Source of the DNA: an uncultured Clostridia bacterium
GTDB taxonomy: Bacteria; Bacillota; Clostridia; Christensenellales; CAG-314
Direction of reading: 5' to 3'
Length of the DNA: 64,000 nucleotides
Assembly: GCA_947625185.1 (NCBI GenBank)
Contig: CANQNJ010000001.1
Coordinates: 8,771 to 72,770 of the forward strand
The translations under genes and the position numbers were made by a program. Below are positions 15,650 through 52,140 of this stretch, in pieces (position 1 is the first letter of the stretch; every line of letters begins with the position of its first letter). Under the pieces are notes generated by a model. It was given only the letters and a program-made list of their open reading frames with translations. It ran no database searches and had not been told where the DNA came from.

Positions 15650-15650
15650 A

Positions 15651-22587: not shown

Positions 22588-22590
22588 ACA

Positions 22591-23670: not shown

Positions 23671-23673
23671 ATT

Positions 23674-26897: not shown

Positions 26898-26961
26898 ATG
26901 GGTAGTGTATGCTTTTTGTACAAAAAAAGTCCTTGCAATGCTCAAAATCGACAAAATCAAG

Positions 26962-26984
26962 GATACTATTCGTGACATAGTATC
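26962..26984. repeat. Hairpin/palindrome family copy A (GATACTAT-TCGTGAC-ATAGTATC)
   Basis: The same TACTAT-TCGTGAC-ATAGTA core occurs at 33612-33636 and 41667-41685. This copy lies in the divergent murG/hydrolase intergenic region. Confidence 0.8.
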
Positions 26985-28561: not shown

Positions 28562-30523
28562 TTGAACAAAACTTACGAAGCAAAAGACATACAGGTCCTG
28601 GAAGGTCTCGACGCCGTCCGTATGCGTCCCGGTATGTACATAGGCACAACGGGCCGCACGGGCTTGCATCACCTGTTGTGGGAGATAGTGGACAACGCCG
28701 TCGACGAAGCCAGCAACGGCTATGCCGACAAGGTCGAGGTCACTCTTCACAAGGACGGAAGCGTCACCGTAAAGGACAACGGCAGAGGTATCCCCGTAGA
28801 CGAACATCCGCAGCTTAAAATCAGCGGCGTCGAAGTGGTGTTTACTCAACTGCACGCGGGCGGCAAATTCAACAACGAGAATTATGCGTTCAGCGGCGGT
28901 CTGCACGGCGTGGGCGCAAGCGTGACGAACGCGCTGTCGAGTTGGCTTACCGTCAATGTCAAGAAGCAGGGCTATGAGTACGAGCAACACTTTCACAGCC
29001 CCGTCGACGAGAACGGCAAGGTACTCAGCGGCGTGCCCAAGGACCACTTGACCAAGATCGGCGAGACTACCGAACACGGCAGCACGATAACGTTCCTTGC
29101 GGACGCGCGCGTTTTCAAGAACGTCCAGATGGATTACGAAGTAATACACAAGCGCATCAAGGAGCTTGCCTTCCTCAACAAAGGCATTACGTTTGTGCTT
29201 ACCGACGAACGCGCCGACGACGATGACGGCAACGTCAAGAGCGAAACGTTCTGCTACAACGGCGGATTGAGAGACTTTGTGCTTTATCTCAACGAAAACA
29301 AGGCTCCGTTGCACCTTACGCCGCTGTATTGGAGCGGCAAGAACGATACTTTGCAGTTGGAATTTGCCTTTCAATACACGACCAACTACACGGAGAACCT
29401 CATCAGCTATGTCAACAACATACCCACCGGCGAGGGCGGTATGCACGAGACAGGTCTCAAAACGGCTATGACCAAGGTGTTCAACGACTATGCCCGCAGC
29501 AAGGGCTTCCTCAAAGCCAAAGACGACAATCTGTTGGGAGAAGATTTCCGCGAGGGTATAACGCTGGTAATGTCCGTCAAGATGGCTAACGTGCAGTTCG
29601 AGGGACAGACCAAGACAAAACTGGGCAACGTCGAGGCAAAAGTCGCCTGCGAAGCGCTTGCGACGGACGCCTTTACCGAGCTGCTCGCCAAGAACGGCGC
29701 CGACGCCGAGACCATCATCAAGAAATCTATCGCTTCGGCAAAGGTAAGAGAAGCGGCGCGCAAAGCCAAGGAGGTCACCCGTCAGAAGAACAGCATATTC
29801 AACAGTACTCTCGTAGGCAAATTGGCAAGCTGCACGGGTCGTGACGCAAGCAAGAACGAACTGTTCATCGTCGAGGGTGACAGCGCGGGCGGCAGCGCCA
29901 AGCAAGCGCGTAACCGTCGTTTTCAGGCAATATTGCCTTTGCGCGGCAAACCGCTCAACGCCGAGCGCAAGCGCATAGACCAGGTGCTTGCCAACGAAGA
30001 AATACGTTCGCTTATCAACGCGCTGGATACGGGTATCGGCGAAGAGGACTTCAATATAGAAGATCTCAAATACGACAAGATAATAATACTTTCCGATGCG
30101 GACCAGGACGGCGCGCACATAAGGGCGATATTGTTGACGTTTTTCTTCCGTTATATGCGCGAGCTTATCACCGACGGACACGTTTATATAGGTATGCCGC
30201 CTTTGTACAAGATATCCAAGAAAGACAAGGTGCGTTACGCGTACGACGACTACGAATTGCAGGAGATCGTCGGCGAATTCGGGCGCGGATACGATTTGCA
30301 ACGTTACAAGGGCTTGGGCGAGATGAATGCCGAACAGCTGTGGGAAACGACAATGAACCCCGAAACGCGTACTCTTATGCGCGTCACGATAGAGGACTTC
30401 TCCGAGGCGGAGCGTATGGTAACTACGCTTATGGGCGACGAGATAGAAGCGCGCAAGGCATACATAACGGAAAACGCCGATTTCAACAAGGATAACGACG
30501 CCTTGTTCAACAAGTTGGTGTAG
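28562..30523 (+). CDS. parE: Type IIA DNA topoisomerase subunit B (GyrB/ParE family; ParE-like judged from its partner)
   Basis: TTG start. [16 protein letters not shown], a GHKL ATPase, a Toprim [11 protein letters not shown] and PLRGK are present. The product is 653 aa. The parE versus gyrB assignment is an inference. Confidence 0.85.
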
Positions 30524-30536: not shown

Positions 30537-33026
30537 ATGAGTCAGCAAGTAGATATATTCGATTTGGAACACAGCGACATAGTAAAGATGGAGGACGGCT
30601 CCAATCTGCTTACCAAGCCGATGGAAGTGGTGATGCACGAGTCGATGATGCCCTATGCGGAGCATGTTATTCTGGACCGCGCCTTGCCGCGCGTCGAGGA
30701 CGGATTGAAGCCCGTTCAGCGTCGCATATTGTACTCTATGTACGAGCAGGGCAACACTCCCGACAAGCCCACGCGCAAGTCGGCGCGCATTGTCGGCGAT
30801 TGTATGGGACGTTATCACCCGCACGGCGACAGCTCCATATACGACGCGATGGTGCGTATGGCGCAACCCTTCGCGATGAACGTGCCGCTTATTATCGGTC
30901 AGGGCAATTTCGGCAATATCGACGGCGACAGCGCCGCGGCAATGCGTTATACCGAGGCAAAGCTGTCTCCCTGCGCGTTGGAATTGTTGCGGGACATCGA
31001 GAAGGACACCGTGCGTTGGGAGCGTAACTTCGACGATACCACGCAGGAGCCGGCAATGCTCCCGGGACGTTTTCCCAATCTGTTGGTCAACGGCGCCACG
31101 GGCATAGCGGTGGGTCTTGCGACAAATATCCCGCCTCACAATTTCGGCGAGGTGATAGACGGTACCATCGCCTATATAGATAACCCGAGGATAAATCTTG
31201 CCTCTATGATGAAGATCATCAAGGGACCGGACTTTCCGACGGGCGGACACGTCATCCCGGGAGAAGGTCTCGCTCAGGCGTACGAAACGGGCAAGGGCAA
31301 GATCACTATCCGCGCGCGTATGCACATCGAGGTTGCGCCCGGCGATCGCAAAAATATCGTCATCACCGAGATTCCCTACGGTATCAACAAGGCGGATATG
31401 CTCATAAAGATAGCCGCTTTGAAGGACGAGAAGAAGGATATGTTCCAGGGCATATCGGAGATAGTGGACGAAAGCGACAAGGAAGGTCTGCGCGCGGTCA
31501 TCAAATTGCGTAAAGACTGCGACGTAAAGCAAACCATCAACAATTTGTTCAAATATTCGCAGTTGGAGATGTCTTACGGTATCAATATGGTCGCCATAGC
31601 CGACGGTAAACCGCAGCTTATGGGATTGTTGGATATCATAGCCTACTATGTGGCGTATCAACGCGACGTGATACTCAAACGCAGCAAGTTCGAGTTGGAA
31701 GAGGCCAAGGAGCGCGCTCATATTTTGCAGGGATTGGTGATAGCCGTCAACAACATCGACGAGGTCATCAAGATAATCAAGAACGCCGCCTCGACGACGG
31801 ACGCGCGCAACAAATTGAGAGAACGTTTCGACCTCAGCGAACGTCAGGCGCAAGCGATATTGGACCTGCGTCTTGCGCGTATCACCAAGTTGGAAGTAAA
31901 CAAGCTGGAAAACGAACTCAGAGAACTCGAACATACGATTGCTCGTCTCAACGTGATAATCAACAGCCGCAAGGAGCAGATGGATCTTATCAAGACGGAA
32001 CTTTCCGCGCTCAAACGCAACTACAAGTCGCCGCGGCTTACGGAGATATGCAAGTCGGAGGATGACGCCGTCATTCCGAGCGAAACGGACGAGAAACCCG
32101 TCGAGACGGTGGTAGTGGGTATTGCCGCCGATTACGGTATCAAGCGTATTCCTTCCAAGAACTTCAATATGTCTCAAAAGGACGACGCCATCGGCAGCGC
32201 CTCGTCGGAGCTGTTGACGCGCGCCATAGAGACCAAGACGGACGCCAACGTGATGTTTTTCAGCAATATGGGCAATTGCTTCCGCACCAAGGTGGGAGAC
32301 CTGCCCGAGATAAGATATCGCGATCCCGGCGCCAAACTGTCGCAGATATTCCCCGAGGCAAGCATGGGCGAATCTCCCGTCGCCGTATTCGCGCAGAGCG
32401 GCGAAGAGGTAAGCGGCGAATTGCTGTTCTATACGCGCCAGGGTATGATAAAACGCAGTTCTTGGAGCGAGTATCAATTGCTTAAATCGGTATTTCAAGG
32501 TTACAAGGGCAAGGACGGCGACGAAGTGTTCAAGGTGGAAGTCATTCGCGACAATACGGAAATATTCTACGTCACCAACCTCGGCGGCTGTACCCGTTTC
32601 GATGTAAGCGAAGTTCCGCTTCAAGGCAGAGTGGCTGGCGGCGTACACTGCATCAATCTCGCCGAGGACGAGTATGTGGTATTTGCAGGTCAGGTGGAAC
32701 GCGACAAGGGCGAAGTGCTTATGGCAACCAATAAGGGCTTTATGAAGCGCCTTTCCGTAAAAGATATCGCCAAGCACGCCCGCAACTGTAAGGGCGCCAA
32801 GGGTATCGAGTTCGGCAACAACGGTACCGATATCGTATTTGCCGACTATGTAAACGGCACGCCGTTCAAGCTTGCCGTATACGACAGAGCCAACACCTAC
32901 GTTGTGGACGCTGCGGATGTCAGCGTTGAGAGCAAGAATCACAAAGGCAAACTTCCGCAAGGCAAGAAAGGCGGCATAGCGGTGGAGAAGATTATTCGCT
33001 ATTGCACGGGAGCCTCCAAAGAATAG
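30537..33026 (+). CDS. parC: Type IIA DNA topoisomerase subunit A (GyrA/ParC family; ParC-like)
   Basis: [12 protein letters not shown] (Q as in ParC, where GyrA has H) and the catalytic [10 protein letters not shown] are present. The beta-pinwheel CTD has no recognisable GyrA box (QRRGGKG). Confidence 0.85.
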
Positions 33027-33050
33027 CGCTCGGGTGATTCCGCGCAAAAC

Positions 33051-33115
33051 GGCTTCGCTTCGGGCTTCGCCCTCGTTGCAGATTATTTTGCAGCCAATAC
33101 CCTCGCGCTCGGTGG
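33051..33115 (+). repeat. Repeat family 2, copy 1 (GGCTTC..TCGGGC..GCCCTCGTTGCAGATTATTTTGCAGCCAATACCCTCGCGCTCGGTGG)
   Basis: The shared core CCCTCGTTGCAGATTATTTTGC also occurs at 33192-33235, 33288-33316 and, inverted, at 51953-52013. Confidence 0.8.
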
Positions 33116-33164
33116 AACAAGGTCGGAATTTAATTAAAAAACAAGTATAGAAGAATGATTCATT

Positions 33165-33235
33165 CGCGCCCCCACATTCGTATGTGGGGGCGCTCATTGC
33201 AGATTATTTTGCAGCCAATACCCTCGCGCTTGGTG
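33165..33235 (+). repeat. GC hairpin (CGCCCCCACAT-tcg-ATGTGGGGGCG) followed by repeat family 2, copy 2
   Basis: CTCATTGCAGATTATTTTGCAGCCAATACCCTCGCGCTTGGTG is near-identical to copy 1 over about 40 nt. Confidence 0.8.
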
Positions 33236-33287
33236 AAAATAAGGTTGGGGTTTAACGATAGAAATAACTATAAGTTAAAACTTAAAC

Positions 33288-33316
33288 GGCTCCGCCCTCG
33301 TTGCAGATTGTTTTGC
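33288..33316 (+). repeat. Repeat family 2, copy 3 (truncated/diverged)
   Basis: The sequence is GGCTCCGCCCTCGTTGCAGATTGTTTTGC. Confidence 0.7.
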
Positions 33317-33481
33317 GCGGAACGCCTGATATGACCTGATGTGTTTGGTGGGTGGCATAGGAGTAAAAGTAAATTATCTGATATGTAATGTCTGTTTGTC
33401 TCATAGCAGTAAGGAACTTTTTTCGCCGTAACCTAACGGAAATCGCCCGTTGTATTGCCGACATTTGATCCCACCGAAGTC

Positions 33482-33642
33482 GTGGTGTACTCGATTGAAA
33501 ACGACGAAATCTTCGACGAATTTGCGTCGGAGATTTTGTGTAGACGATCTTCTTGTTATTGTCGACACCTTCGATAAAAGTGTTTATTATGCCGAAATTT
33601 CGAAAAAAATAAAATACTATTCGTGACATAGTATTTGATTTT
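33482..33642 (+). repeat. About 160-bp direct repeat, copy B (contains hairpin 33612-33636)
   Basis: The 14-nt GTGGTGTACTCGAT and a 55-nt core TATGCCGAAATTTCGAAAAAAATAAAATACTATTCGTGACATAGTATTTGATTTT match 41538-41694. The core differs at 4 of 55 positions by eye. The interior shows only patchy similarity. Confidence 0.75.
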
Positions 33643-34491
33643 CCGACTGATATATAACAAACCTGCAATACAAGTAAGGCGGTGGTAACGCAAATCGTTG
33701 TGATATTTATTGTTTTCCATTAGATGTTTTTTATATGTCAATATGAAGTGTATGCCAGAGAAAGGGTTCTTTTATCCGATTAAGACTTTGAAATAGCAAA
33801 CAGCATCTTGCTCCCGCTCCGCTTCAATTTAGTTGCGATGTAATTTGGGTCGGACTTATTATTTCTTTTTGTCGAATAGCGGTTTATTTGCCTTGGCTAT
33901 AAATCTATATTTATTGAACATCTATCTGCTTCAATTTTCGTTTACGATTGAAAATGTAATTTTGAATTTATTGGTTATTTTATATTATACTATTTTATAT
34001 TTTCTTAAAGTTTCCAAGTAAAACGTTTTCTGAATATAAGAACTCTGTTGTACAGTCAGCAGCAGAGCAAAACTCTTTTGTTTTCGCAATTGCTTATAAA
34101 TTAAATGAGGCTTTTGTTTAATTTATTTACTCAATTACACATTTATATAAACTTTTTCTTCGTTTGTATGGAGCGTACGGTCTATCGCCTTTTGAGATAC
34201 TTTTGCCGATAGCTTCGATCTCATTTTGTTTTGGAAATTCCTTATATAAAGGGTATATAGAAAAAACGTCGTTGCTCTATCTTTGTTTATTCACATACCT
34301 GATATCTTTCGGACAATCAATATGTTTGCGCTCATTTTTTTTGTTAAAAAAGGCTTTCTTTTGCTTATTTCCCTCGAAAATCAATCAAAAATGATAATTT
34401 TCTAAAAATTTTCGTTATAATCGCAAGGTATTGACAAACAGTCGGGGGGGGTGGTATCCTTATGTAGATTTAATGAGGTGGAGTTGAATAT

Positions 34492-35427
34492 ATGTCTCTT
34501 GTAACTACTAAGGAAATGTTTGAAAAAGCTTACAACGGGGGTTATGCGATAGGCGCATTCAATGTCGATAATGTCGATATAATGCAGGGCGTAATTGCGG
34601 CTGCGGTCAAGACGAGATCCCCCGTCATCATCGCAATCAGCGGAGGCGCCCTCAAATATATGCACCCAGCATATGCGCGTCACGCTGCTCTGGCAGCTGC
34701 CGAAGAATGCGATATACCTATTGCATTGCATTTGGATCACGGCAAGAGCGTGGACCTTTGCAAACAATGCGTCGATAACGGTTTCACGTCCGTGATGATA
34801 GACGCCTCGGCGTATGACTTTGAAACCAACATTGCAATGACTCGCGAAGTCGTCGAATATGCCCATGCTCGCGGCGTAGTCGTAGAGGGTGAGTTGGGCG
34901 CAATTGCAGGTATCGAGGACGATGTGGTGGTGGACGATAAGTACGGAAGTTTCACTCATCCCGACGACGCGGTGGAATTTGTCCGTAGGACGGGCATAGA
35001 CAGCCTGGCTATCGCTATCGGCACGGCTCACGGCGCCTACAAATTCAAACCCGGACAAAAACCTCAACTGCGTTTCGATATTTTGCAAGAAATATCCGCA
35101 AAGCTTCCGGAATTTCCCATAGTTTTGCACGGCGCGTCAAGTGTTCCGAGGGACAGGTTGGATACTTTCAACCGCTACGGAGGACAATTGCCCGACGCGA
35201 TAGGCATCCCCGAGGAAATGCTTCGACAGGCTGCGTCGATGTCTGTGTGCAAGATCAATGTCGGAAGCGATATTCGTATTTGCTATTTCGGTGAAATTCG
35301 CAAAATGTGCGCCCTTAAACCAAACAAGTTTGAAGGGAGAGAATATCTTGAACCTGCGCGTACCGCCGTGGAAGAAATGGTGACGTACAAGATCGAAAAG
35401 GTATTCGGAAGCGCAGGCAAGGCATAA
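34492..35427 (+). CDS. fba: Class II fructose-1,6-bisphosphate aldolase
   Basis: GYAIGAFNV..., IALHLDHG and GTAHGAYK are present, placing it in the class II FBA/tagatose-bisphosphate aldolase family. The product is 311 aa. Confidence 0.9.
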   Translation: MSLVTTKEMFEKAYNGGYAIGAFNVDNVDIMQGVIAAAVKTRSPVIIAISGGALKYMHPAYARHAALAAAEECDIPIALHLDHGKSVDLCKQCVDNGFTSVMIDASAYDFETNIAMTREVVEYAHARGVVVEGELGAIAGIEDDVVVDDKYGSFTHPDDAVEFVRRTGIDSLAIAIGTAHGAYKFKPGQKPQLRFDILQEISAKLPEFPIVLHGASSVPRDRLDTFNRYGGQLPDAIGIPEEMLRQAASMSVCKINVGSDIRICYFGEIRKMCALKPNKFEGREYLEPARTAVEEMVTYKIEKVFGSAGKA

Positions 35428-35482
35428 ATAAGGTTTTACCCGACTTAGTCGGAAAAATAATATTATCAATAAGGAGAAAAAC

Positions 35483-36775
35483 ATGAAAAAGCTATTTGCA
35501 ATTTTGCTTACGGTTGCGCTGATTGTTTCCGCTGTGTGCGTGCTTGCGGCTTGCAATGGTAACAAAACTGACGTCGCTGCAGCAATCGAGGCTGCAGAAA
35601 AAATGACGCTTGAAGAGCTTGAAGCTGCTTCCAAAAAGGAATTTGAAGACAATCCCGATGCAGTGTTCAATGCCGACTCATTAACTTCCGGTATAAAGAA
35701 GGCTTTAAGTGCTTTTGCGGAGAAATATGACTGGCTGAATTTCGCCAATTCTGAAGATGTAAAAGAAAATCCTGATGCATTGAAAGGAAAGAATGCTGTT
35801 TACAACAGCAAGAAAGGTTCTGAATATCAACCAAAGCTTACCGCCGCAAAAAAATCAAATGCTTATATTGCGGACTTCGTTATGATTCAGGATGCGTCGT
35901 TTGTGGATTCGTTGGTTAAGGACAAGTTCCTGCTTAGCTATGTTCCTCAAGGAAGTGAATTCCAACTTTCTGAAACCAACCCGCTTGTTGGTGTGACATT
36001 CAATAAGGTATTTATGTACAACAATTCTGTTGTCGGCAAAGACCAACTCAAAAATGTATGGCAATTGACCGGAAAGGATGGCAGTACTTTGAAGGGTATC
36101 GATAAGGTTTCTTATCAAAGTCCGCTTGGAGAAGATGTCAATATGAGTTTCCTTATTATGCTCACAAGCCCGGATGCATGTGAAAAATTAACCAAGGCTT
36201 ATAAGAGTTATTTTGGACAAGATTATGTCAAGGAAGCAGACTACGAGAATATCGGCTACAAGTTTGTGGCAGAGTTTATTAAAAATGTAGAATATTGGCA
36301 CAAATCAGATTCAACCGAGGTTAAAGAGATAAACAATGAGGACAAAAAAGATGGACGTGTAGTATTCGCCGGACTTTGCAAACTCAAGGATTATCCTGGA
36401 TACAAAGTTGAGCCTTCCGATCCAAGTTATTACAAAGAGGTTGTCAGCGCTGCGGGATGGAACCAAGATGTAGAAGGATTCCCCGGATTCGTTTATAATA
36501 TGTGGACGCTTATTCCCAGCACTGCTAAATTGCCCTACACGGCTTGCCTGTTTACAAGATATCTCCTTACCAAAGACGGATACTCGGCAGGATGGGGTGG
36601 TGTTCTTGGATACTACAGCGCCAACTCCAAAATTGGCTCTGTAGATGGAGATCCTTCTCTCGCTAAGTGGAAAGAAATGGCTGTTGTTGAAGATGTTGCG
36701 TATATTAACTCTGTGTATGGATCTGTATCCAAATTCATCAATCAACAAATGTCTACAACAAGTGCTGCAAAATAA
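35483..36775 (+). CDS. ABC transporter substrate-binding lipoprotein (substrate unknown)
   Basis: The signal peptide carries the lipobox VLAAC-NG. The product is 430 aa and lies upstream of the permease and ATPase genes. Confidence 0.8.
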   Translation: MKKLFAILLTVALIVSAVCVLAACNGNKTDVAAAIEAAEKMTLEELEAASKKEFEDNPDAVFNADSLTSGIKKALSAFAEKYDWLNFANSEDVKENPDALKGKNAVYNSKKGSEYQPKLTAAKKSNAYIADFVMIQDASFVDSLVKDKFLLSYVPQGSEFQLSETNPLVGVTFNKVFMYNNSVVGKDQLKNVWQLTGKDGSTLKGIDKVSYQSPLGEDVNMSFLIMLTSPDACEKLTKAYKSYFGQDYVKEADYENIGYKFVAEFIKNVEYWHKSDSTEVKEINNEDKKDGRVVFAGLCKLKDYPGYKVEPSDPSYYKEVVSAAGWNQDVEGFPGFVYNMWTLIPSTAKLPYTACLFTRYLLTKDGYSAGWGGVLGYYSANSKIGSVDGDPSLAKWKEMAVVEDVAYINSVYGSVSKFINQQMSTTSAAK

Positions 36776-36850
36776 TTAATATTTGAGTGTATAACAAATG
36801 TAATTTCGGGAGGAGGCCATACCTCCTCCCTACATTTATTTGGAGCATAT

Positions 36851-38680
36851 ATGATTAACAAAAAGCAATTCGATTTAAAAAGGTTTGGAAATGGTGTGAA
36901 GTCCTACTTTTCCAAGCCGGCCAATATTATCACTATAGTTTTTTTGGTAATATTGGTATTGACGGTTGTATTACCTCTTGCCACATTGTTTATAGGGTCT
37001 TTTCGTTATAACACATCTCAAGAGGCAATGATGAAACCGGGCGCCGCTGAAGGAGATTGGACTTTTGACCATTGGAAAGACCTGCTTACTGATAAAGAAT
37101 ATGATTACGCCAAGTATAAGCTTTGGGTTCCGCTTGGCAAGTCAATTTTGATGGCAATATTGGCATGCTTTATTGCTGTTATATTCGGTGGAGTGGTTGC
37201 ATGGTTTATTACAAGAGCGGATATCCCCGGTAAAAAATTTATTTCCACCATATTTGTGTTTCCTTATATTATGCCGAGTTGGTCAATAGCGATGTTTTGG
37301 GAAAATTTCTTTAAAAACACTGCTATAGGTGGGACTAGGGGCATGTTGCAGATGATAACCGGAATTTGCGTGCCGCAAAGTTGGGTTTACGGCTTGGTGC
37401 CTTGCTCGATTTGTTTGGGACTTCACTATGCGCCCTTCGCCTATATCCTTATCGGCGGAATTTTGCGCAATATGGACGCAAACCTTGAAGAGGCGGCAAC
37501 GGTATTAAAGGCCTCTCGTATCAAGATATTATTCCGCGTAACGTTACCAATTGTTGCTCCAGCGTTGATCTCTACGGTATTGTTGGTGTTCAGCAGTAGT
37601 ATCAGCAGTTTTACAGTTCCATATTTTTTGAATAAGGATGGTGGATTTATTGCGCTTTCGGTGCAATTGAAAAACCTCATTAACAGCGGATTTACTAAGG
37701 GACAAGGATATGTTATGGCAATCATTTTGATGATGTTTTCCATAGCTATATTGACACTAAACAATTGGTTTACGGGCAAGCGTAAGTCTTTTACCACTGT
37801 AACGGGCAAATCAGGGCAGGTATCTCTTGTCAAAATGGGTAAAGCGCGTATACCTATTGCAGTGATTATGATAATTGTGGTAGCTTTCTTTGCAATTGTT
37901 CCGCTTGTCAGTTTCGCATTGGAGAGTATGATGGAAACGATGGCAGATGGGACACAGCGTCTTACGTTGGATTATTGGTTCTCCAAAGAGCTAACAGAAG
38001 GTAGCGTTAAGGGTGATACAGTAGGCATTTTGGCAAGCGCAATTATGTGGAAAGCGCTTGGACGCTCATTAGCATTGTCTATAATTGTTGCTCTATTTTC
38101 GGGAACTTTTGGCGTTTTGATAGGCTATGCTGTTGCGCGTAAACGCGATAGTCGTCTTGCGACGCTGGTGTCCAATCTGGCCTTCTTCCCTTATTTGATA
38201 CCCGCAATGAGTTTTGGCGCGGTATATTTGGCACTGAGCTATACGGAAGGTTTTACATGGTTGGATGGGTCTTTTGTGTTGTTGGCGCTTGTGGGAGCAA
38301 TTAAATTTATGCCATTTGCCTCACGCACAGGTACTAGCGCAATGATGCAACTTTCCGGCGAGATAGAGGAAGCGGCGATTATGCTCAACGTGCCTTGGTG
38401 GAAGCGAATGGTTCGAGTACTGTTTCCCATTCAAAAGGCGAGCTTCATCAGCGGATATTTGCTTCCTTTCATCAGTTGTATGAGAGAGTTGTCGCTGTTT
38501 GTGTTGCTTACAGTCAGCCACGAAACGTTGCTTACCACGCTGTTGGGCGAGTACAGTCGGACGGGTCTTACGGAATCGGCAAATGCCATCAACCTGTTGA
38601 TAATCATAGTGGTGTTGGTTATTCAATTTGTCGTTAACAAACTTACGGGTGCGTCCATAGATAAAGGAGTAGGAGGCTAA
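36851..38680 (+). CDS. ABC transporter permease, fused double MetI-like domain (FbpB/ThiP-type architecture)
   Basis: The product is 609 aa with about 12 TM helices in two repeated halves, each with an EAA-like loop (EEAATVLKASR / EEAAIMLNVPW). Confidence 0.85.
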   Translation: MINKKQFDLKRFGNGVKSYFSKPANIITIVFLVILVLTVVLPLATLFIGSFRYNTSQEAMMKPGAAEGDWTFDHWKDLLTDKEYDYAKYKLWVPLGKSILMAILACFIAVIFGGVVAWFITRADIPGKKFISTIFVFPYIMPSWSIAMFWENFFKNTAIGGTRGMLQMITGICVPQSWVYGLVPCSICLGLHYAPFAYILIGGILRNMDANLEEAATVLKASRIKILFRVTLPIVAPALISTVLLVFSSSISSFTVPYFLNKDGGFIALSVQLKNLINSGFTKGQGYVMAIILMMFSIAILTLNNWFTGKRKSFTTVTGKSGQVSLVKMGKARIPIAVIMIIVVAFFAIVPLVSFALESMMETMADGTQRLTLDYWFSKELTEGSVKGDTVGILASAIMWKALGRSLALSIIVALFSGTFGVLIGYAVARKRDSRLATLVSNLAFFPYLIPAMSFGAVYLALSYTEGFTWLDGSFVLLALVGAIKFMPFASRTGTSAMMQLSGEIEEAAIMLNVPWWKRMVRVLFPIQKASFISGYLLPFISCMRELSLFVLLTVSHETLLTTLLGEYSRTGLTESANAINLLIIIVVLVIQFVVNKLTGASIDKGVGG

Positions 38681-38683
38681 GCT

Positions 38684-39883
38684 ATGCCAAAAATTATTTT
38701 AGAAAATGTAACAAAGAGATTTGACAAATTCGTTGCGGTTGACAATCTTAGTATGGTGATAGACGATCGCGATTTCGTGATCCTTTTGGGACCGAGCGGC
38801 TGCGGAAAAACTACGACTTTGCGTATGATCGCAGGTCTGGAAACGCCCACAGAGGGACGTATTACCATCGGAGAACAGGTGGTGTTCGATTCGGCAAAAG
38901 GGATAAATGTGCCGCCGGGAAAGCGCGATATAGGTTTTCTTTTTCAGAACTATGCTTTGTGGCCGCATATGACTGTGTACCAGAACATTGCATTCGGTTT
39001 GGAAAATCTTAAATGGAAAAAGGATCGGATACGCGAACGCGTAAACGAAATGCTGTCCCTGCTCAAAATCGAACAATTTGAGAAACGCTATCCAAGTGAA
39101 CTGTCGGGTGGACAGCAACAGCGTGTGGCTATTGCCCGTACGTTGGCGCCCAGCCCGAAAGTACTGTTTATGGATGAACCGCTGTCTAACCTTGACGCAA
39201 AGCTACGTCTCGAAATGCGTACCGAATTAAAGCGCTTGCACGCCAATACCGATTCGACTTTCGTATATGTAACTCACGACCAATTGGAAGCAATGACGCT
39301 TGCGACCAAGGTTTGTCTGTTGGATACGGGCGTGTTGCAGCAATACGATCCGCCGCTTGTGGTGTACAACAAACCAAACAATTTGTTTGTTGCCGATTTT
39401 GTCGGCAATCCCACGATGAACTTCATTCAAGGCAAGGCGCAGATAAACGGCAGCGTTGCGGAAGTGGAAATGTTGGGACATGAGTTTACTTTCCAAGCTG
39501 ACGAAGAGATCGAACCGACAACCGTGCCCGACGCGGAACAGTCGGCGGTCCCCGAAGTCGCGGAAGAGGAACAAATACCTGCGACGGAGAACGAACAGCC
39601 GACAGACGACCGTGTGGACGTCGTGATAGGTGTTCGTCCCGAGTTTTTGCGTGTAGAGCAGGGCAGTCTTGTCGGCAATATTTACACAACGTTGCCATCC
39701 GGTATGGAAACGACCGTAAAGTTGGAAGTCGGAGAGGAAATCATAACCTCCGTGGTATTCGGCAGCGTCGACTATCCTGCCAACAGCGAGGTGCATTTCT
39801 CCATTGTAGGCAACGGAGTAATTATGTTCGATTCCGTCAGTCGCAAAAAGATCGCAATGGGCAGTATTACGGAAAACAGATAA
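38684..39883 (+). CDS. ABC transporter ATP-binding protein (PotA/FbpC/MalK-like) with an acidic insertion in the C-terminal regulatory domain
   Basis: GPSGCGKTT, LSGGQQQRVAIAR and LFMDEPLSNLD are present. The C-terminal TOBE-like domain is interrupted by EEIEPTTVPDAEQSAVPEVAEEEQIPATENEQPTDD. Confidence 0.9.
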   Translation: MPKIILENVTKRFDKFVAVDNLSMVIDDRDFVILLGPSGCGKTTTLRMIAGLETPTEGRITIGEQVVFDSAKGINVPPGKRDIGFLFQNYALWPHMTVYQNIAFGLENLKWKKDRIRERVNEMLSLLKIEQFEKRYPSELSGGQQQRVAIARTLAPSPKVLFMDEPLSNLDAKLRLEMRTELKRLHANTDSTFVYVTHDQLEAMTLATKVCLLDTGVLQQYDPPLVVYNKPNNLFVADFVGNPTMNFIQGKAQINGSVAEVEMLGHEFTFQADEEIEPTTVPDAEQSAVPEVAEEEQIPATENEQPTDDRVDVVIGVRPEFLRVEQGSLVGNIYTTLPSGMETTVKLEVGEEIITSVVFGSVDYPANSEVHFSIVGNGVIMFDSVSRKKIAMGSITENR

Positions 39884-40080
39884 TCTTATAGCCGAATAGA
39901 TAAAATTGAAGAGTATGTCAATGACTTTGGATTCAGACCCAAAAAGTTGAATGCCATGTAATCAACTTGCGGGGTGCAATTCGATCTTGACATACTTTTT
40001 TTTACTCTTGGGCAAATGTGGAGACGCTGCGGTTATTTTCACATTATGTAAGCGAGTTGATTTATTAGCTCTCCCTGCTG

Positions 40081-40126
40081 CGGTATCGGGACAGCGATCG
40101 CTGTTTACCGCCATTTTTTTGTTTTT
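40081..40126 (+). terminator. Candidate rho-independent terminator after the ABC importer operon
   Basis: The stem CGGTAtcgggACAGC-gatc-GCTGTtTACCG is followed by ccaTTTTTTTgTTTTT. Confidence 0.5.
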
Positions 40127-40388
40127 CGGAATTTCGCGCGCATTTTGTTTTTTTTAGCGGTTATATTTTTGTCTTGATATTGAAACGTTGATTTGCATAA
40201 GCATTTTCCTGCATGATTGGAAAAATATTAACGCGCAGACGGCAAATCTATACATCAAGAAAACGTCAAAAGGGTAATATATTTATTAGTAAATTATATA
40301 TTTTGTCGAAATTTGTAAATAAATTTTCCGATTTGCTTAATTTTTACCCATACTGCGCGGTATTAATTAGAAAAGGAGGTTCATTACC

Positions 40389-41561
40389 ATGTCAATGAAT
40401 AAATTTTGTTTTCACGCCGTAGGACAGGGATTGTTTTATACGGGCAGCCTGTTTGACGGCAAATTCAACTTCGTATACGATTGCGGCACCGAGAACAGCG
40501 TTAGATATGTACAAAATGAAATCGACGCTTATGTTGACAGTTTGCCAAACGGTTGCAAAGCGTTGGATTTCGTTGTTATTTCACATATGCACAGAGATCA
40601 TTTTAGCGGGTTGAAGTATTTGCTGTCAAAGATCAGAGTCAGAAATCTTTACCTTCCGTATTTAGGCAACAATCCCGCTGTTATAAAAGTAATGCTCGCT
40701 GAGATTTTCTTCGGTGAATTGTTGGGAGTGAAGTATTTTGATGATTATAGTTTTGCAAGAGATTTGTATTTATCGCCATATCGAGTCAATAACTTGGATA
40801 ATGTGAGATATTTCGGAGAAAACGATGATGAATACAGGCAAGAACGCGAGAGAAGAAAGGACGAAACGGAAATCGAAACAACAAGATCTGTCACTGTCGA
40901 GGAAAAAGACGATTGGAGATACGTTACCGAACTGCTTCGATGTTTCGGATTGCGCAAGCGAGGGTGGACATTTGTTTTTGTAAACAAGCAAATTTCGCCC
41001 GCTGAGCAATCTAAACTTGATTCCCTGATACCAATTGATTGCGATCGATGCTTGGAGAATATGATACTTGCCGAGGACCTTGGCGGCATCAAAAAGATCG
41101 TCGATAATTATAAAGAAGTTTTTCCGAAAACTTTCTTTAACGATATGTCAACTGTATTATTGCATTTCCCCGACGACCGGAGTGCGTTGATCTCGCCTTT
41201 ATGCACCAAATCGTTAACGCATGGCGGTGGAGCAATACTTTCTTTTATTGCACAGCACAGTACTCTGTTGACGGGCGACGCCATGTTGGACGACGTTATG
41301 TTGAGTATATTGATGAGCTACTTTCCTTACGGATATGGGGTGCTTCAATTGCCTCACCACGGATCGGCAAAGAATTATTTCGGCAACAACAAAAAACCGC
41401 TTGAATTTTGGAGAAAATTTCAGTTTATGATAGCTTCTTTCGGATTGGGTAATCAGTATTGCCATCCCAATGTCAGTGTGGTAAACCACATTCATAGTCT
41501 ACCCGCCGAGCTGCTGACTTGCAACCAAACTCAATCGGTGGTGTACTCGATCTTAAATTGA
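40389..41561 (+). CDS. Metallo-beta-lactamase-fold hydrolase (orphan, AT-rich)
   Basis: AGGAGG lies 9 nt upstream of the ATG. FHAVGQGLFYTG...FVYDCGT...VISHMHRDHFSG (HxHxDH) and a late LPHHGS are present. The product is 390 aa. Confidence 0.8.
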   Translation: MSMNKFCFHAVGQGLFYTGSLFDGKFNFVYDCGTENSVRYVQNEIDAYVDSLPNGCKALDFVVISHMHRDHFSGLKYLLSKIRVRNLYLPYLGNNPAVIKVMLAEIFFGELLGVKYFDDYSFARDLYLSPYRVNNLDNVRYFGENDDEYRQERERRKDETEIETTRSVTVEEKDDWRYVTELLRCFGLRKRGWTFVFVNKQISPAEQSKLDSLIPIDCDRCLENMILAEDLGGIKKIVDNYKEVFPKTFFNDMSTVLLHFPDDRSALISPLCTKSLTHGGGAILSFIAQHSTLLTGDAMLDDVMLSILMSYFPYGYGVLQLPHHGSAKNYFGNNKKPLEFWRKFQFMIASFGLGNQYCHPNVSVVNHIHSLPAELLTCNQTQSVVYSILN

Positions 41562-41694
41562 CGGATGTTCCGATTGTCGACGGAAAATTACTGACGACGT
41601 ACATTATGCCATTGTGTGGATTGTAGATAAATGTGCTACTATGCCGAAATTTCGCAAAAAACAAAGTACTATTCGTGACATAGTATATGATTTT
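41538..41694 (+). repeat. About 160-bp direct repeat, copy C (contains hairpin 41667-41685); overlaps the last codons of the MBL gene
   Basis: See 33482-33642. The core here is TATGCCGAAATTTCGCAAAAAACAAAGTACTATTCGTGACATAGTATATGATTTT. Confidence 0.75.
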
Positions 41695-41835
41695 GCGCTC
41701 AAAACATAACAAAATAATAATGCAGACAAGACAACGGCGCAGCAAATTGTTGCTGCGCCGTTATCTTCGGCTTCCGATGTCAAATTTACATTTTACAAGC
41801 GGAATAAAAAGCGGGGGTTTTGCCCGAGAAGCGCT

Positions 41836-42507
41836 TTATCCGACGTAACGGGCTTTAAGAGAATAAATCGGTGCGCCTTGCGCTCGGAACTTTGCCTCGT
41901 ATTCCGTTACGATGTTGTCTTTTCCGTCGGGCAGGTCGTAGCAGACGTCGTACACCTCAAAGCCGTATTGAGCAAAACTTTCCTGTGACCAGATAAAGAA
42001 ATCGCGATTGTCCGTCTTTTGCAGGATCACGCCGTCGTCTGCAAGTATCCGTCTGTAAATATCGAGAAAGTTTTTGCTTGTAAGCCGACGGTTGGCATAT
42101 GTTTTCTTGGGGAAAGGACAGCTGAAATTCAACGCGATCTCCTCCACCGAATGGGGCGGCAAATATCTGTCGAGATTTTCCGCGCGCACATTGAGAAATT
42201 TGAGATTATTCACTCCCGACAATGCGGCGTTTTCGCAGGCGACCACGATGACGTTGGAAAGTTTCTCTACGGCGATATAGTTTCTGTCGGGACGACGTTT
42301 TGCGCTTTCAATTGCCCAAGCGCCTTTGCCGCAGCCTATTTCGAGTACGATCGGTTGCGCGCAAGCGAACACTGCGTCGACGTCTATGCGATAAGCCGCC
42401 TTTTCTTCCTCCGTCAACAGGTAGTAGCCGTCTCCCTCGCGGGCAAGCAGCAGATCCGAGCATTGCGCTATACGCTCTTCAAGGTGTTTTTTCAGTCGCA
42501 TTCTCAT
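41836..42507 (-). CDS. trmB: tRNA (guanine-N7)-methyltransferase TrmB
   Basis: LEIGCGKGAW (SAM motif I) and the FSCPFPKK pattern are present. The 223 aa product runs from the ATG at 42507 (MRMRLKK). The upstream 270 codons of the tracked ORF are Arg/Ala-rich and overlap nadE, so they are not credible. Confidence 0.85.
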   Translation of the reverse strand: MRMRLKKHLEERIAQCSDLLLAREGDGYYLLTEEEKAAYRIDVDAVFACAQPIVLEIGCGKGAWAIESAKRRPDRNYIAVEKLSNVIVVACENAALSGVNNLKFLNVRAENLDRYLPPHSVEEIALNFSCPFPKKTYANRRLTSKNFLDIYRRILADDGVILQKTDNRDFFIWSQESFAQYGFEVYDVCYDLPDGKDNIVTEYEAKFRAQGAPIYSLKARYVG

Positions 42508-44630
42508 AGTCTTTCCAACTCCGCAAGCCAGCCGGCGCTTTCGACGTCGCTCGGCATACGCCAACTGTATTTGGATAGGTCTACCGAGCCGAGCCGTACG
42601 CTGTCCGGCGCGCAGCTCCGTTTGTATTGTTGGGAGAAGAAGCGCCGTACGAAGAATTTCAGCCGAGCGAGGATTGTCGCGTCGTCGTATTTGCCTGCAA
42701 AAGACAGCTTGGCAAGTTCGTATACCTTGCGCGGAGTAAATCCCTTGCGCACCGTCATATACACAAAGTAATCGTGCAATTCGTACGGACCGACGATGTC
42801 CTCCGTGATCTGCGAGATTTTGCCGTCCTTGTCCGGCGGCAGCAGCTCGGGACTTACGGGGGTATCGATTATGTCGTGAAGCGCCTGTTTCAGCTCGCCC
42901 TTGGATGCGTCCTCGCAGTGGCGCAGCAACGCTTTGACAAGCGTCTTGGGGACGGAAGCGATGACGGCGTACATACTCATATGATCGCCGTTGTATGTAC
43001 TCCACCCAAGCGCCGCCTCGCTCATATCGCCCGTTCCGATAACCAACCCGTTGCAGGCGTTGGCAATGTCCATCAGAACTTGCGTGCGTTCGCGTGCTTG
43101 CGCGTTCTCGTATACGACGTCGGGCGCAAAGTCGTGTCCTATGTCTTTGAGATGTTGCGTTACGGATTCCGTTATGTCTATCTGTTTCAGCGACGCGCCT
43201 ATCGCCTCGGCAAGCCTTATGCTGTTGCGCAGCGTGCGTTTGCTCGTGCCGAAGCAGGGCATAGAGACGGCTTGTATATCGCTTGCGGGACGGTCGAGGA
43301 GTTTCAGCGCCCTTTGACACACAAGCAGTGCAAGCGTGCTGTCGCTTCCGCCGGAGATACCGATAACGAGCTTTTGCGCGCGGATGTGTTCGACGCGTTT
43401 TTTGAGTCCGTAAGCAAGTATCGTCAGCGTCCTTTCGGCAAGAGCGTCACGTTCCTCCTTGTTTTGCGGAACAAAGGGCGTCGGGCAATATACGCGCGTC
43501 GTTTTGCCGTTGAGCGGCAGTTGAAATTCTATTACGTCGTATCCTTCGGGAGATACGCCTTTGTCCAGATGCGCGCGCTCGTTCGCGATGAAGTTGAAGT
43601 CGCATTCTGCTTCGGCGTATCCTGTCGTAAAGGGTTTTGCCTCGCCGAGACATTCGCCGTTTTCGCAAATAATGTTGTGCGCCGAAAAAACCGTCACGGA
43701 AGTGGATTCCGACATTCCCGACGAGCAGTAGGCATATATAATATTGTTTTTTGCGGATTGCATTTCTATCATTTTCTTGCGGTAGGCGGCTTTTACCACC
43801 GTTTCGTTGCTTGCGGACAGATTGAATACCGCATTGGCTCCTGCCGCCGCGTGATATATCGATGGAGAGTCTGCCACCCATACGTCCTCGCAAATTTCCA
43901 CGCCGAATTTTACCTCGGGATGAAGCGAATCGGCGAATATAAGTTTGCAGCCGAACGGAACCTCTTTGCCGAACAGGCGCACCGCGGTATTGGCGCCGCC
44001 GTAGGGGCAGAAGTGACGTTTTTCCATAAATTCGTTGTAGTTCGGCAGATTTTTCTTGGGAACAACGCCCAATATTTCTCCGCGGCAGAGTATTGCAGCC
44101 GCGTTGTACAGTCTGCCGTCATTGCCCGTAAGGGGCAGTCCGACGGCGACGACGGCGTCGGTGTCGGCAAGCGCGTCGGTTATGTGTTTCAATTGGCGGA
44201 GGGCTTCGGTGCGCAACGTCTCCTGAAAGAACAGGTCGCCGCAGGAGTATCCCGTTATGCACAGCTCGGGCAAAATGACAAAACGTGCGTTTTTGCTTGC
44301 GGCGCGTTTCGCTTCGGCGATTATTCGTTCCGCATTGTAGGCGCAGTCGCCCACCTTGACGTCGGGGGATATGCAGGCTATTTTCACTATCCCGAGGCAG
44401 CTTTCGTTATCCTGCGCGACGTCGTTGCGTTCGTCGCCGAGCAAGTATTCGACGCTTACATCCAAAGCCGCGGCAAGTTTTTCCAATTTGTCCGCCTTGA
44501 TTTTCTGCAATTCTCCGCTCATTATTTTGTTGACGGTGCCTTGCGTAAGTCCGCTTGCTTCCGCCAATTGTTTAAGCGTCATACCTTTGCGTTTTTTCGC
44601 TTCGTTCAATTTCGATACGATCTGTTGCAT
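42504..44630 (-). CDS. nadE: Glutamine-dependent NAD+ synthetase (CN-hydrolase + NAD synthase domains) with an N-terminal XRE-type HTH domain
   Basis: Residues 5-65, LKQLAEASGLTQGTVNKIMSGE...LEKLAAALDVSVEYLLG, form an HTH_3 domain. A nitrilase-like domain follows (VILPELCITGY with the catalytic Cys), then the PP-loop GISGGSDS. Confidence 0.85.
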   Translation of the reverse strand: MQQIVSKLNEAKKRKGMTLKQLAEASGLTQGTVNKIMSGELQKIKADKLEKLAAALDVSVEYLLGDERNDVAQDNESCLGIVKIACISPDVKVGDCAYNAERIIAEAKRAASKNARFVILPELCITGYSCGDLFFQETLRTEALRQLKHITDALADTDAVVAVGLPLTGNDGRLYNAAAILCRGEILGVVPKKNLPNYNEFMEKRHFCPYGGANTAVRLFGKEVPFGCKLIFADSLHPEVKFGVEICEDVWVADSPSIYHAAAGANAVFNLSASNETVVKAAYRKKMIEMQSAKNNIIYAYCSSGMSESTSVTVFSAHNIICENGECLGEAKPFTTGYAEAECDFNFIANERAHLDKGVSPEGYDVIEFQLPLNGKTTRVYCPTPFVPQNKEERDALAERTLTILAYGLKKRVEHIRAQKLVIGISGGSDSTLALLVCQRALKLLDRPASDIQAVSMPCFGTSKRTLRNSIRLAEAIGASLKQIDITESVTQHLKDIGHDFAPDVVYENAQARERTQVLMDIANACNGLVIGTGDMSEAALGWSTYNGDHMSMYAVIASVPKTLVKALLRHCEDASKGELKQALHDIIDTPVSPELLPPDKDGKISQITEDIVGPYELHDYFVYMTVRKGFTPRKVYELAKLSFAGKYDDATILARLKFFVRRFFSQQYKRSCAPDSVRLGSVDLSKYSWRMPSDVESAGWLAELERL

Positions 44631-45016
44631 ATATTCTCCCGCATAAAACTCCCGCGTCGGCTCCGCTCATAGAGGTGCGGAAGAAGCCGTGCATGGAGTG
44701 TATAATTTTTATCTTTTATATTTTACTTTAAATTTTTTATAAAATCAACCGATGAACGACGCTTAATTTTATAAAAAAATTTAATAAAATTTGTTCATTT
44801 GCGCGAAATATTATAAAGGCGGCAAAAATAATATCTTATCGTAGAATTTGTTTTTGCATATCCCGATACGTTTTGCGTGCAGTTCGACGTCGAATGCCGT
44901 CCGCAAGAGAACGAAAAGCAATTTTCGCAGCGGAAAGTTGGCGCTTAATATTGATATTCCGCGTATTTTTTGATATTATATATATGATATTCAGGCAAGT
45001 GTGCCGAGGAGAAGTT

Positions 45017-52013: not shown

Positions 52014-52140
52014 TTTTTGCGTTGAATACCCGATGCGACTTCGTGCGTTTGGTCGGTGGCTCTGATGGCAAAATGTTGGGGCAAAGCAGGCTTATATTTC
52101 TATATAATTAGTCTTGACCCCAACATTTGACATAGAGCCT

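Follow-up and report, generated by a model that had tools for sequence, protein, structure and literature searches.

Direct repeats that flank a block of bacterial genes can be compared with several described systems: (i) duplication scars, that is, junction duplicates at rearrangement breakpoints; (ii) repetitive extragenic palindromes (REPs) and their paired form, REPINs, which depend on RAYT Y1 transposases; (iii) miniature inverted-repeat transposable elements (MITEs); (iv) the attL and attR sites of Campbell-type insertions; (v) the operators of PadR-type regulators; and (vi) the Ter sites of Bacillus subtilis, read by the replication terminator protein (RTP). As regards the fifth group, cdPadR1, a PadR-s2 protein of Clostridioides difficile, binds TACT(N11-12)AGTA, for instance AGAGTACTATGTATTATTATAGTAAAT; its operator has also been given as GTACTAT(N2)ATTATA(N)AGTA; about half of the sites predicted in that species lie between convergent genes or inside open reading frames (ORFs) (PMC5050560). 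The subject of the present text is one pair of direct repeats, here called copies B and C, in a stretch of 64,000 nucleotides (hereafter, the window) from contig CANQNJ010000001.1 of an uncultured Clostridia bacterium (assembly GCA_947625185.1). The two copies bracket the fructose-bisphosphate aldolase gene fba, the genes of an ATP-binding cassette (ABC) importer and a metallo-beta-lactamase (MBL) fold gene, and both contain a short conserved core.

Taken as a whole, the locus is best explained, and with moderate confidence, if B and C are old junction paralogues that flank a relocated native block plus an orphan MBL gene, their core being one member of a putative family of protein-binding motifs. 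The rearrangement is an ordinary one; the motif family appears to be undescribed but of a familiar kind.

Direct repeats B and C and further copies of their core

Four copies of the core, or of part of it, are found in the window:
26925-26983, + strand: copy A, located between two divergent genes, murG (- strand, start codon 26897) and an alpha/beta-hydrolase gene (+ strand, ATG 27197), and containing the exact 20-mer (26964-26983)
33482-33700, + strand: copy B, composed of a 14-mer (33482-33495), a weakly similar spacer, the core (33588-33642) and ~58 nt with weak similarity to the start (left arm) of the trmB terminator in copy C
41538-41752, + strand: copy C, composed of the 14-mer, coding here for the final residues of the MBL protein (stop codon 41559-41561), and the core (41640-41694), and running into the left arm of the terminator
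49794-49813, + strand: copy D, TACTATTTCAGTCATAGTTT, a probable diverged fourth copy, 134 nt upstream of a polysaccharide deacetylase gene (49947)

A first-pass annotation of the window had described B and C as sharing a 14-mer in the same orientation and a 55-nt core with four differences, and had proposed a BLASTN of the window against itself. That search joins them as co-linear direct repeats (69.5% identity over 220 columns, E 1.6e-24), and a separate repeat search recovers the pair at 74% across 116 nt. The 14-mer, GTGGTGTACTCGAT, was looked for in the window with up to two mismatches allowed (shuffle mean 0.15) and occurs exactly only at 33482 and 41538, both times on the + strand, while the two cores agree at 51 of their 55 positions, so both descriptions hold. 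The same is true of the reading frames that it gave for the 14-mer: ..QSVVYSILN* in copy C and, in the same frame, ..EVVVYSIENDEIF.. in copy B, where a stop lies 13 codons upstream. No family match was obtained for the minus-strand small ORFs that overlap the repeats (33282-33668 and 41473-41745), nor are these ORFs conserved.

Within the core, the exact 20-mer TACTATTCGTGACATAGTAT is present at 33615-33634 (B), 41667-41686 (C) and 26964-26983 (A): three occurrences in the window against zero expected, with not a single match in 100 shuffles. It is also the longest exact run shared by B and C, whose overall divergence is about 30%. The distance from the 14-mer to the 20-mer is 133 nt in B and 129 nt in C, which implies a 4-nt indel. 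According to shuffle tests, the similarity between the 14-mer and the core is weak (p = 0.015, local alignment), that of the right flank amounts to 33 of 58 positions (57%, p ~0.05), and that to the left of the 14-mer is not significant (p = 0.29). A perfect 10-bp palindrome, CGAAATTTCG, is located 12 nt upstream of the 20-mer in the cores of B (33594-33603) and C (41646-41655); it is found neither in copy A nor in the copies of other genomes.

Copies A and D were overlooked in the first-pass annotation, which described the repeats as bracketing the segment. Actually, the core is not specific to those boundaries, since it recurs at 26964, at 49794 and in relatives that lack the insert. Copy A is 71% identical to B over 59 nt and 86% identical to C over 36 nt, with weaker similarity in the approximately 39 nt upstream of its 20-mer; between A and B, identity is 20/20 in the motif and drops to 22/39 and 9/40 in the adjacent DNA. 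Copy D matches the 20-mer at 15 of 20 positions (nhmmer E 0.26), and its position weight matrix score of 26.5, against a shuffle maximum of 15.6, has to be read knowing that copy D itself was among the training sequences. Furthermore, what lies between A and B is hydrolase-parE-parC, which is syntenic in all relatives, so that bracketing by the core is uninformative by itself.

In loci fetched from related genomes (identified below by L numbers), the motif occupies comparable places. In L011 (position 12705, variant TACTATTTCACACATAGTAT) and in L009 (position 14143, variant TACTATTACAGACATAATAT), neither of which has the insert, it sits just past the 3' end of trmB and ahead of the shared terminator, that is, between the upstream + strand gene and the trmB terminator, where copy C is in the window; the approximately 30 nt upstream are similar as well. 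L022 (ParC 80% identical to that of the window) has three copies: (i) in the murG/hydrolase interval, as the counterpart of copy A; (ii) 156 nt after parC; and (iii) 26 nt after a gene for a PRC-barrel protein. No counterpart of copy A is present in five closer relatives (L006, L008-L011). In the distant L046 (ParC just 52% identical), matches of 16/20 and 18/20 lie shortly after stop codons and, as in L022, the motif is found after parC. The exact 20-mer occurs only once among the representative genomes of 185,579 species, namely in a metagenome-assembled genome (MAG) of a rabbit-gut Clostridia (L001/L018), 270 nt upstream of rny; this MAG also shares with the window a second intergenic repeat family (described below), for which reason the two are considered related. 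Two strains, L018 and L019, both have the motif upstream of rny, with several substitutions around it and none in the 20-mer or its immediate flanks.

All 12 copies are co-oriented with parC and with the local genes that flank them, which in the window corresponds to the G-rich strand. Six of them sit 12-224 nt past the stop of a co-oriented gene, and the other six lie upstream of one. The conserved sequence reads TACTATK, three variable bases and WGACATANTAT. The variable centre follows the lineage and not the locus: TCGTGAC in copies A, B and C of the window and in L018/L019, TAC(A/T)GAC in L009 and L022, and TTCACAC in L011, a pattern that suggests a trans-acting factor co-evolving with the motif, or else copies that homogenise one another. 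Successive copies at 33615, 41667 and 49794 are 8052 and 8127 nt apart, and those at 9934 and 17990 of L022 are 8056 nt apart; this spacing of about 8.05 kb, which spans unrelated genes in the two genomes and was noticed post hoc, may be due to chance. A phage or plasmid origin of the repeat was rejected, as BLASTN against 50,697 records of phages and 72,556 of plasmids gave no match and the 20-mer is absent from IMG/VR and from the JGI metagenomes. In short, the core belongs to a small, strand-oriented family of intergenic motifs distributed across this group of uncultured gut Clostridia.

The fba block, the orphan MBL gene and the history of the locus

The segment bracketed by B and C, its neighbours and the site relevant to its origin are as follows:
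11082-11129: empty former fba-ABC site, with a single terminator hairpin separating the stop of the second ABC-exporter gene from the 3' end of copA (- strand)
27197-28175, + strand: alpha/beta hydrolase gene
28562-30523, + strand: parE
30537-33026, + strand: parC
33701-34378: AT-rich spacer between copy B and the fba promoter
34379-39883, + strand: relocated native block, made up of the fba promoter and four genes (Pfam/NCBIfam, BLASTN co-linearity)
34492-35427, + strand: class II fba (Pfam, NCBIfam)
35483-36775, + strand: gene with no family match, in the position of a substrate-binding protein (SBP-like)
36851-38680, + strand: fused two-domain permease gene (Pfam, NCBIfam)
38684-39883, + strand: MalK-type ATPase gene (Pfam, NCBIfam)
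39884-40388: AT-rich spacer between the ATPase and MBL genes (GC 0.35)
40389-41561, + strand: MBL-fold hydrolase gene, 390 amino acids (Pfam Lactamase_B, E 4.6e-07)
41836-42507, - strand: trmB
42504-44630, - strand: NAD synthetase gene (nadE), with an N-terminal helix-turn-helix (HTH) domain

Many relatives have a ParC that is 80-91% identical to that of the window. The comparison with related genomes that the first-pass annotation had called for shows parC followed directly by trmB(-)-nadE(-), with no fba, ABC or MBL gene in between, in five lineages: L006/L007 (ParC 91%), L010 and L011 (both 88%), L009 (85%) and L021 (81%). There, parC and trmB are separated by no more than 200-600 nt, by a single small membrane ORF (L006) or by genes for an HTH protein and a 5'-3' exonuclease (L009). 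In a neighbour-joining tree of ParC, the window is nested among L006, L012, L010, L011 and L008, with L009 outside. Both observations together lead to the conclusion that the 8.8 kb from 33027 to 41835 is derived in this lineage.

The origin of most of this DNA can be traced within the group. Fba is 89-90% identical to the Fba of sister genomes, about as close as ParC. In three of these (L013, L015 and L017), the gene order is yqfD-phoH-HD-ybeY-era-recO-ABCexporter1-ABCexporter2, then fba-SBP-permease-ATPase, then copA(-)-copZ(-)-regulator(-). By BLASTN, the left part of these loci maps to 2697-11066 of the window, the copA part maps to 11168-13657, and the fba block (9883-15291 in the sister loci) is co-linear with 34383-39871. 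In the window, the second exporter gene (ending at ~11082) and copA are cleanly adjacent, and the fba block lies 23 kb downstream. Since the block is absent from its usual site and present further along the same chromosome, we infer that a native block was relocated and that an orphan MBL gene was added to it. A foreign origin of fba-ABC was rejected, given that the identity of Fba to its relatives equals that of ParC and that sister genomes show the block in synteny. The outgroup L020 (Fba 80% identical) has these four genes in yet another setting, the third, flanked by a dUTPase gene on one side and a GH2 gene on the other; therefore, the four genes behave as one unit, with more than one move in this group.

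These results support the interpretation of the first-pass annotation in part. It had proposed a cassette gained or rearranged by recombination between the repeats, with ABC and MBL genes richer in AT than parC or nadE, and with a relic 3' end of a related gene in copy B. The segment is indeed lineage-specific, rearranged and absent from the five related lineages, but it is native and not foreign. Regarding composition, the statement is correct for the SBP gene (GC 0.41), the permease gene (0.43) and the MBL gene (0.415), but not for fba (0.50) and the ATPase gene (0.485), which are near the local norm (parC, 0.53; nadE, 0.54); in sister genomes the block has the same GC as its neighbours, so the compositional argument is weak. 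Recombination between the repeats finds no support in a pair that is ~30% diverged. For efficient homologous recombination, which depends on RecA, an exact run of 20 nt is too short at present. Nothing shows that the repeats caused the rearrangement. Finally, the relic in copy B stands for the last 8 to 19 codons, but not for anything further upstream, as explained in the following paragraph.

The MBL gene is found at this locus in this species only. The best homologue of its protein outside the species is 37% identical, and homologues at 30-37% identity are widespread in Clostridia metagenomes. Weak matches link it to the MBL effector modules of anti-phage systems (LmuA-type, E 3.7e-11; RTasMBL, E 2e-6; Avs1a, E 5e-8 to 3e-4) and also to the C-terminal domain of ComEC. 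At its C-terminus, NQTQSVVYSI aligns with tqlqsfeYli of the family profile, so that the 14-mer residues VVYSI fall in a conserved C-terminal strand. Consequently, the 14-mer is genuine coding sequence in copy C, and copy B must descend from a copy that was already behind an MBL gene. With a family profile built from more than 100 homologues, the true C-terminus is recovered at copy C (E 2e-20). The possibility of an MBL pseudogene upstream of B was rejected, since the same profile finds nothing in the six frames of 33027-34491; by tblastn, the MBL-like stretch at copy B is limited to 10/19 residues (E 8.8).

Since relatives that lack the insert show the motif at the same place, the motif beside trmB (copy C) is older than the insertion. 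The duplicated junction would comprise the last MBL codons, the motif-bearing core of ~55 nt and the start of the trmB terminator. From this starting point, the history may have proceeded in three steps: (i) the MBL gene, with the fba block upstream, would have arrived between parC and the resident motif; (ii) a unit ending in the MBL 3' end, the motif and the start of the terminator would have been duplicated in tandem; and (iii) the first copy would have been mostly deleted, its end piece staying on the parC side as copy B, which would give the pattern 'z a...z'. Duplication followed by deletion would be the most economical route to copy B. Other routes may have led to the same picture, such as the duplication of a patch of ~220 nt or the integration of a circle into an older MBL remnant. 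In any case, flanks that have diverged by ~40% indicate that the duplication is old.

Nature of the core and competing explanations

Several known functions were considered for the core. A known RNA was rejected: the sole match in the window above the Rfam gathering score is a tRNA-Asn, and E-value scans of 33000-34500 and 39850-41900 gave, at best, sub-threshold scores of 15-27 bits against cut-offs of 48-100, with no family near its threshold. A structured RNA was rejected as well, as RNAalifold on seven copies and both strands returned only a palindrome of 6-7 bp with no compensatory pairs; its hairpin has a free energy of 0 to -2.3 kcal/mol and is broken in both copies of L046. No terminator-like site was found at the motif. 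As for a promoter, it was discarded in view of a consensus scan that finds a sigma-70-like site (TCGACA-17-TATTAT) just upstream of copy B and of no other copy, and no pattern common to all copies emerged when boxes of the sigma-A, extended -10, sigma-D and sporulation-sigma types were looked for by eye. On the preferred reading, the core is not an RNA, a terminator or the agent of the rearrangement.

On the other hand, the core appears to be under constraint, judging from its conservation in B and C (51/55, against 33/58 in the flank), from the unchanged 20-mer of L018 and L019 and from the 18/20 match in L046. While B and C have drifted to ~57-60% identity in their flanks, they retain 93% in the core and 100% in the 20-mer. 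Preservation of the core next to decayed DNA, and of the 20-mer between strains, points to sequence-specific recognition, most simply by a DNA-binding protein. Thus, the core is most likely a putative duplex-DNA site for a sequence-specific protein, and its form resembles that of the sites of winged-helix proteins of the PadR type. By analogy with the C. difficile operator, this form would be a lead and not a sign of membership.

A number of points weigh against the explanation by old junction paralogues with a protein-binding core. The similarity of B and C beyond the core and the 14-mer is marginally significant (p 0.015 and ~0.05), so both the length of the duplicated unit and how far it reaches into the terminator are soft. 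The parC-B-fba junction and the empty site at 11.1 kb depend on one assembly. No further MBL remnant exists upstream of B, which means that a collapsed duplication must have deleted almost everything. The direction of the move is a parsimony argument based on 3 + 5 relatives; in the outgroup L020, the block is elsewhere again. Regarding the core, no cognate DNA-binding protein was found in the window and no PadR or HTH ORF is present beside copies A-D; the motif lies ~60-200 nt from recognisable downstream promoters, and often directly after stops, unlike a classical operator; and its single orientation relative to genes would also fit a function in the transcript. Lastly, L022 has two copies, 8056 nt apart (8052 nt in the window), around ~8 kb of unrelated genes just after parC, so an association with segment boundaries is possible.

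The alternative that fares best, which we nonetheless regard as unlikely, is that the core is a short, non-autonomous extragenic repeat of REP or MITE type that spreads or is homogenised within the genome, with A, B and C as separate members and the bracketing as incidental. Several dispersed intergenic copies in 64 kb would agree with it, as would (i) the patchy presence at equivalent sites (copy A is in the window and in L022, and absent from L006 and L008-L011); (ii) a variable centre that goes by lineage and not by locus; (iii) the frequent location just after stops, as in REPs; and (iv) the existence of a second, unrelated intergenic repeat family in the same genome. Nevertheless, no terminal inverted repeats or target-site duplications were seen, and the window has no RAYT or Y1 transposase gene. 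The end of an IS200/IS605 element as source of the motif was rejected, since the single insertion of this type that was found (in L015) has different, unrelated ends. The fall in identity between A and B outside the motif indicates old copies with a constrained core instead of recent spread; the single species-representative genome with the exact 20-mer and the lack of phage, plasmid or IMG/VR matches also count against this reading. Moreover, B and C share 220 nt that include gene sequence, from which it follows that this pair arose by segmental duplication.

Next comes a site-specific origin, with the 20-mer as the crossover of an att-like site: blocks of genes would have been inserted beside parC as circles, leaving one copy in an empty site and two direct copies in a filled one. 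This possibility is likewise doubtful. It would account for the single variant copy at the empty sites of L011 and L009, for the pair of direct copies, identical in their 20-nt core, on either side of the 8.8-kb insert, for the two similarly spaced copies of L022 around ~8 kb of other genes after parC, and for the different cargo between parC and the motif (a membrane ORF in L006, HTH and 5'-3' exonuclease genes in L009, fba-ABC-MBL here). Against this, a Pfam and NCBIfam search of the five genes at 34492-41561 and their neighbours detected no recombinase, integrase, resolvase or transposase, and no recombinase-type domain was found in the other, larger window ORFs that were scanned. The cargo is of a housekeeping nature, that is, fba here and, in L022, genes for a sigma factor, thymidine kinase and formate-tetrahydrofolate ligase (FTHFS). 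Neither copies A and D nor the copy of L018 are at the edges of variable segments, and L009 has cargo yet only one copy. Besides, the likeness of B and C extends to either side of the core and takes in the 3' end of MBL, which would not be expected from a simple attB x attP exchange.

A third option, which we hold to be rather improbable, is an element acting at the level of the transcript, either as a signal in an untranslated region (for protein or small RNA binding, processing or stability) or as the 5' portion of a small RNA, with the terminator downstream as its end. The co-orientation of 12 of 12 copies with the flanking genes, six after stops and six upstream of genes, is in line with it; the same can be said of a bidirectional terminator within 50-60 nt of the motif at copy C, L011 and L009, and of the sigma-70-like site just upstream of copy B. 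But there is no conserved secondary structure or covariation, the hairpin is marginal in energy and broken in L046, the remaining copies have no consistent promoter upstream, and Rfam offers no match.

Still less probable, and very much so, is that the motif works in the architecture of the chromosome, as a site read by a dedicated winged-helix protein: a polar fork barrier similar to Ter, or a marker of a recombination hot spot where blocks of genes would be exchanged beside parC, and thus not an operator close to a promoter or a merely passive repeat. Pointing to it are the 12 of 12 copies that face one way on the G-rich strand, which would suit a polar site, their intergenic location with no fixed distance to promoters, the lineage-following centre, the variable cargo between parC and the motif, and the spacings of 8052, 8127 and 8056 nt. 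Finally, mis-assembly of the metagenome, or fortuitous similarity in AT-rich spacer DNA, is scarcely credible in spite of the MAG-type source, the low-coverage SPAdes contigs of the related records and the left junction (parC-copy B-fba), observed in this window alone and without an independent sighting, because ATPase-MBL-copy C-trmB-nadE is present in four independent ENA metagenome assemblies, identical at 341/341 positions around copy C (base-for-base agreement that clears that side of the suspicion of an artefact), the similarity of B and C has an E of 1.6e-24, no shuffle out of 100 gave any 20-mer match, and the motif recurs in other genomes.

Setting of the locus and comparison with known systems

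Further features of the window are:
23674-25767, + strand: gene for a protein similar to pyruvate phosphate dikinase (PPDK-like)
25860-26897, - strand: murG
33030-33316, + strand: a different intergenic repeat in three copies (..GTTGCAGATTRTTTTGC..), directly after parC
41728-41767: inverted repeat GGCGCAGCAA-ATTG-TTGCTGCGCC, between copy C and the trmB stop (41836), detected as a self-complementary BLASTN match (85%)

The inverted repeat at 41728-41767 is presumed to serve as terminator for both MBL and trmB, which are convergent; hairpins are present at the equivalent place in L011 and L009. The DNA between parC and fba (33027-34491) has a GC of 0.365. The spacer at 33701-34378 holds no ORF with a family match, and neither AT-rich spacer (searched as 33700-34400 and 39872-40400) has similar DNA in any of the fetched loci. 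In contrast to the B/C repeat, from which they are separate, the repeats at 33030-33316 are the ancestral 3' flank of parC, since L008 carries the same repeats after its own parC. They are part of the second, unrelated intergenic repeat family, with units of ~60-80 nt (..CGCTCGGGTGATTCCGCGCAAAACGGCTTCGC..GTTGCAGATTRTTTTGCAGCCAATACCCTCGCGCT..), which in the window is found at 33030-33316 (+ strand) and 51968-52033 (- strand), and elsewhere in L008 (1663-2098 and 12532-12687) and L018 (7291-7836). This family forms two to three loosely tandem copies right after stops (of parC here, and of recA and a WYL-regulator gene in relatives), 75-93% identical across genomes. In L011, degenerate 17-nt repeats with the consensus AGATATAGTCTTGTCGG follow parC (12482-12640), of which the program TRF scores three copies (12529-12579), and a 350-nt low-complexity tract of C and T only lies upstream of a deacetylase gene (19500-19850).

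With respect to the fba block, its promoter (34431-34460) has a run of 8-9 G between the -35 (TTGACA) and -10 hexamers, and this run is kept in relatives in all three chromosomal contexts (L017, 9934-9965; L020, ~9850-9880). At the downstream edge of the block, L015 has an IS200/IS605-type insertion with a Y1 transposase (15492-16195), located exactly at that edge and absent from the otherwise identical L013. On the other side of trmB, the fusion of XRE-type HTH, CN_hydrolase and NAD_synthase domains (42504-44630) is conserved in all relatives examined, with 698-715 amino acids, and a 30-nt AT-rich inverted repeat (44722-44789) is found upstream of the gene.

Farther away, 14507-25767 (+ strand) is a seven-gene island of low G+C (0.41-0.46), at the place where relatives have murF-ddl-WYL upstream of murG. 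Its genes encode a TIR-LRR protein, two large proteins with no family, and AAA-like, AdoMet-decarboxylase-like, radical SAM and PPDK/PEP-utilising-like proteins; a role in defence or modification is possible for this island. A phage-like cluster at the window's right end is marked by a terminase large-subunit gene (55741-57162) and a P22-like portal gene (57701-59623). In L012, a terminase gene is directly upstream of parE.

The locus is of interest for three reasons. First, a core glycolytic gene, fba, and the ABC importer linked to it travel as a fixed four-gene unit and are found in at least three chromosomal contexts within one clade of uncultured rabbit- and animal-gut Clostridia. Second, it calls for caution when MAG synteny is used as evidence of horizontal transfer: low G+C and flanking repeats hinted at a foreign cassette, and the genes turned out to be native. 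Third, a 20-nt motif that is conserved base for base across species and strains, always in one orientation, offers a testable handle on a putative DNA-binding activity in organisms without genetics. As to its scale, current understanding is not overturned by any of this.

Concerning the described systems, duplication scars, or breakpoint junction duplicates, resemble the B/C pair: the direct repeats measure a few hundred bases and have between them a block missing from relatives, a truncated gene end has no gene in front, and the copies diverge freely except where they are constrained. Unlike in those scars, the event is old here (~30% divergence) and no intermediate genome is at hand; in addition, the repeated unit holds a motif that is also conserved elsewhere, so part of the similarity is kept by selection.

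REPs and REPINs share with the core a short, intergenic, partly palindromic and non-coding nature, a frequent position after stops, a lineage-specific sequence type and the presence of several copies per genome. Their copy number, in the case of the core, appears low: three exact copies and one diverged in 64 kb, and one exact copy in the sole species-representative genome that has the 20-mer. They differ from it in that the copies here (i) are single and in one orientation, instead of inverted pairs; (ii) have a very weak hairpin (0 to -2.3 kcal/mol), with the palindrome broken in the distant relative L046; and (iii) mostly lack a conserved GTAG head, with no gene for a RAYT or Y1_Tnp protein seen in the window. 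MITEs differ too, as the similarity of the core copies decays gradually from the 20-mer and there are no shared ends.

The attL/attR sites of Campbell-type insertions resemble the locus in the single copy at the empty site of relatives and the two direct copies with an identical 20-nt core here; they are unlike it in the lack of a recombinase, the housekeeping cargo, the extra copies unrelated to inserts and the homology on both sides of the core. Concerning the Ter sites of B. subtilis, the likeness consists of an asymmetric, partly palindromic, intergenic site of 20-30 nt, with several copies within tens of kb and every copy pointing the same way on the G-rich, presumably leading, strand. 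The reverse complement of the motif, ACTATGTCACGAAT, may resemble CTATGTACYAAAT, the core of the B. subtilis Ter consensus. In contrast, no rtp-like gene was seen and the GC skew keeps one sign across the window; to our knowledge, RTP is known only from Bacillus and its close relatives.

Finally, the operators of PadR-s2 proteins provide a parallel to the form of the core. The centre TCGTGAC of the motif, with 4/7 G+C, is not AT-rich as in those operators, an additional conserved GAC extends its right half, there is no adjacent padR gene or PadR-family ORF in the window, and the organisms are only distantly related. In spite of these differences, the arrangement TACT-ATTCGTGACAT-AGTA, with N = 11, is found in copies A, B and C and in those of L018 and L011, whereas the copies of L009, L022 and L046 each have one changed base in a half-site; moreover, the left half is identical to the operator over up to 10 nt in the copy of L018 (AGAGTACTAT).

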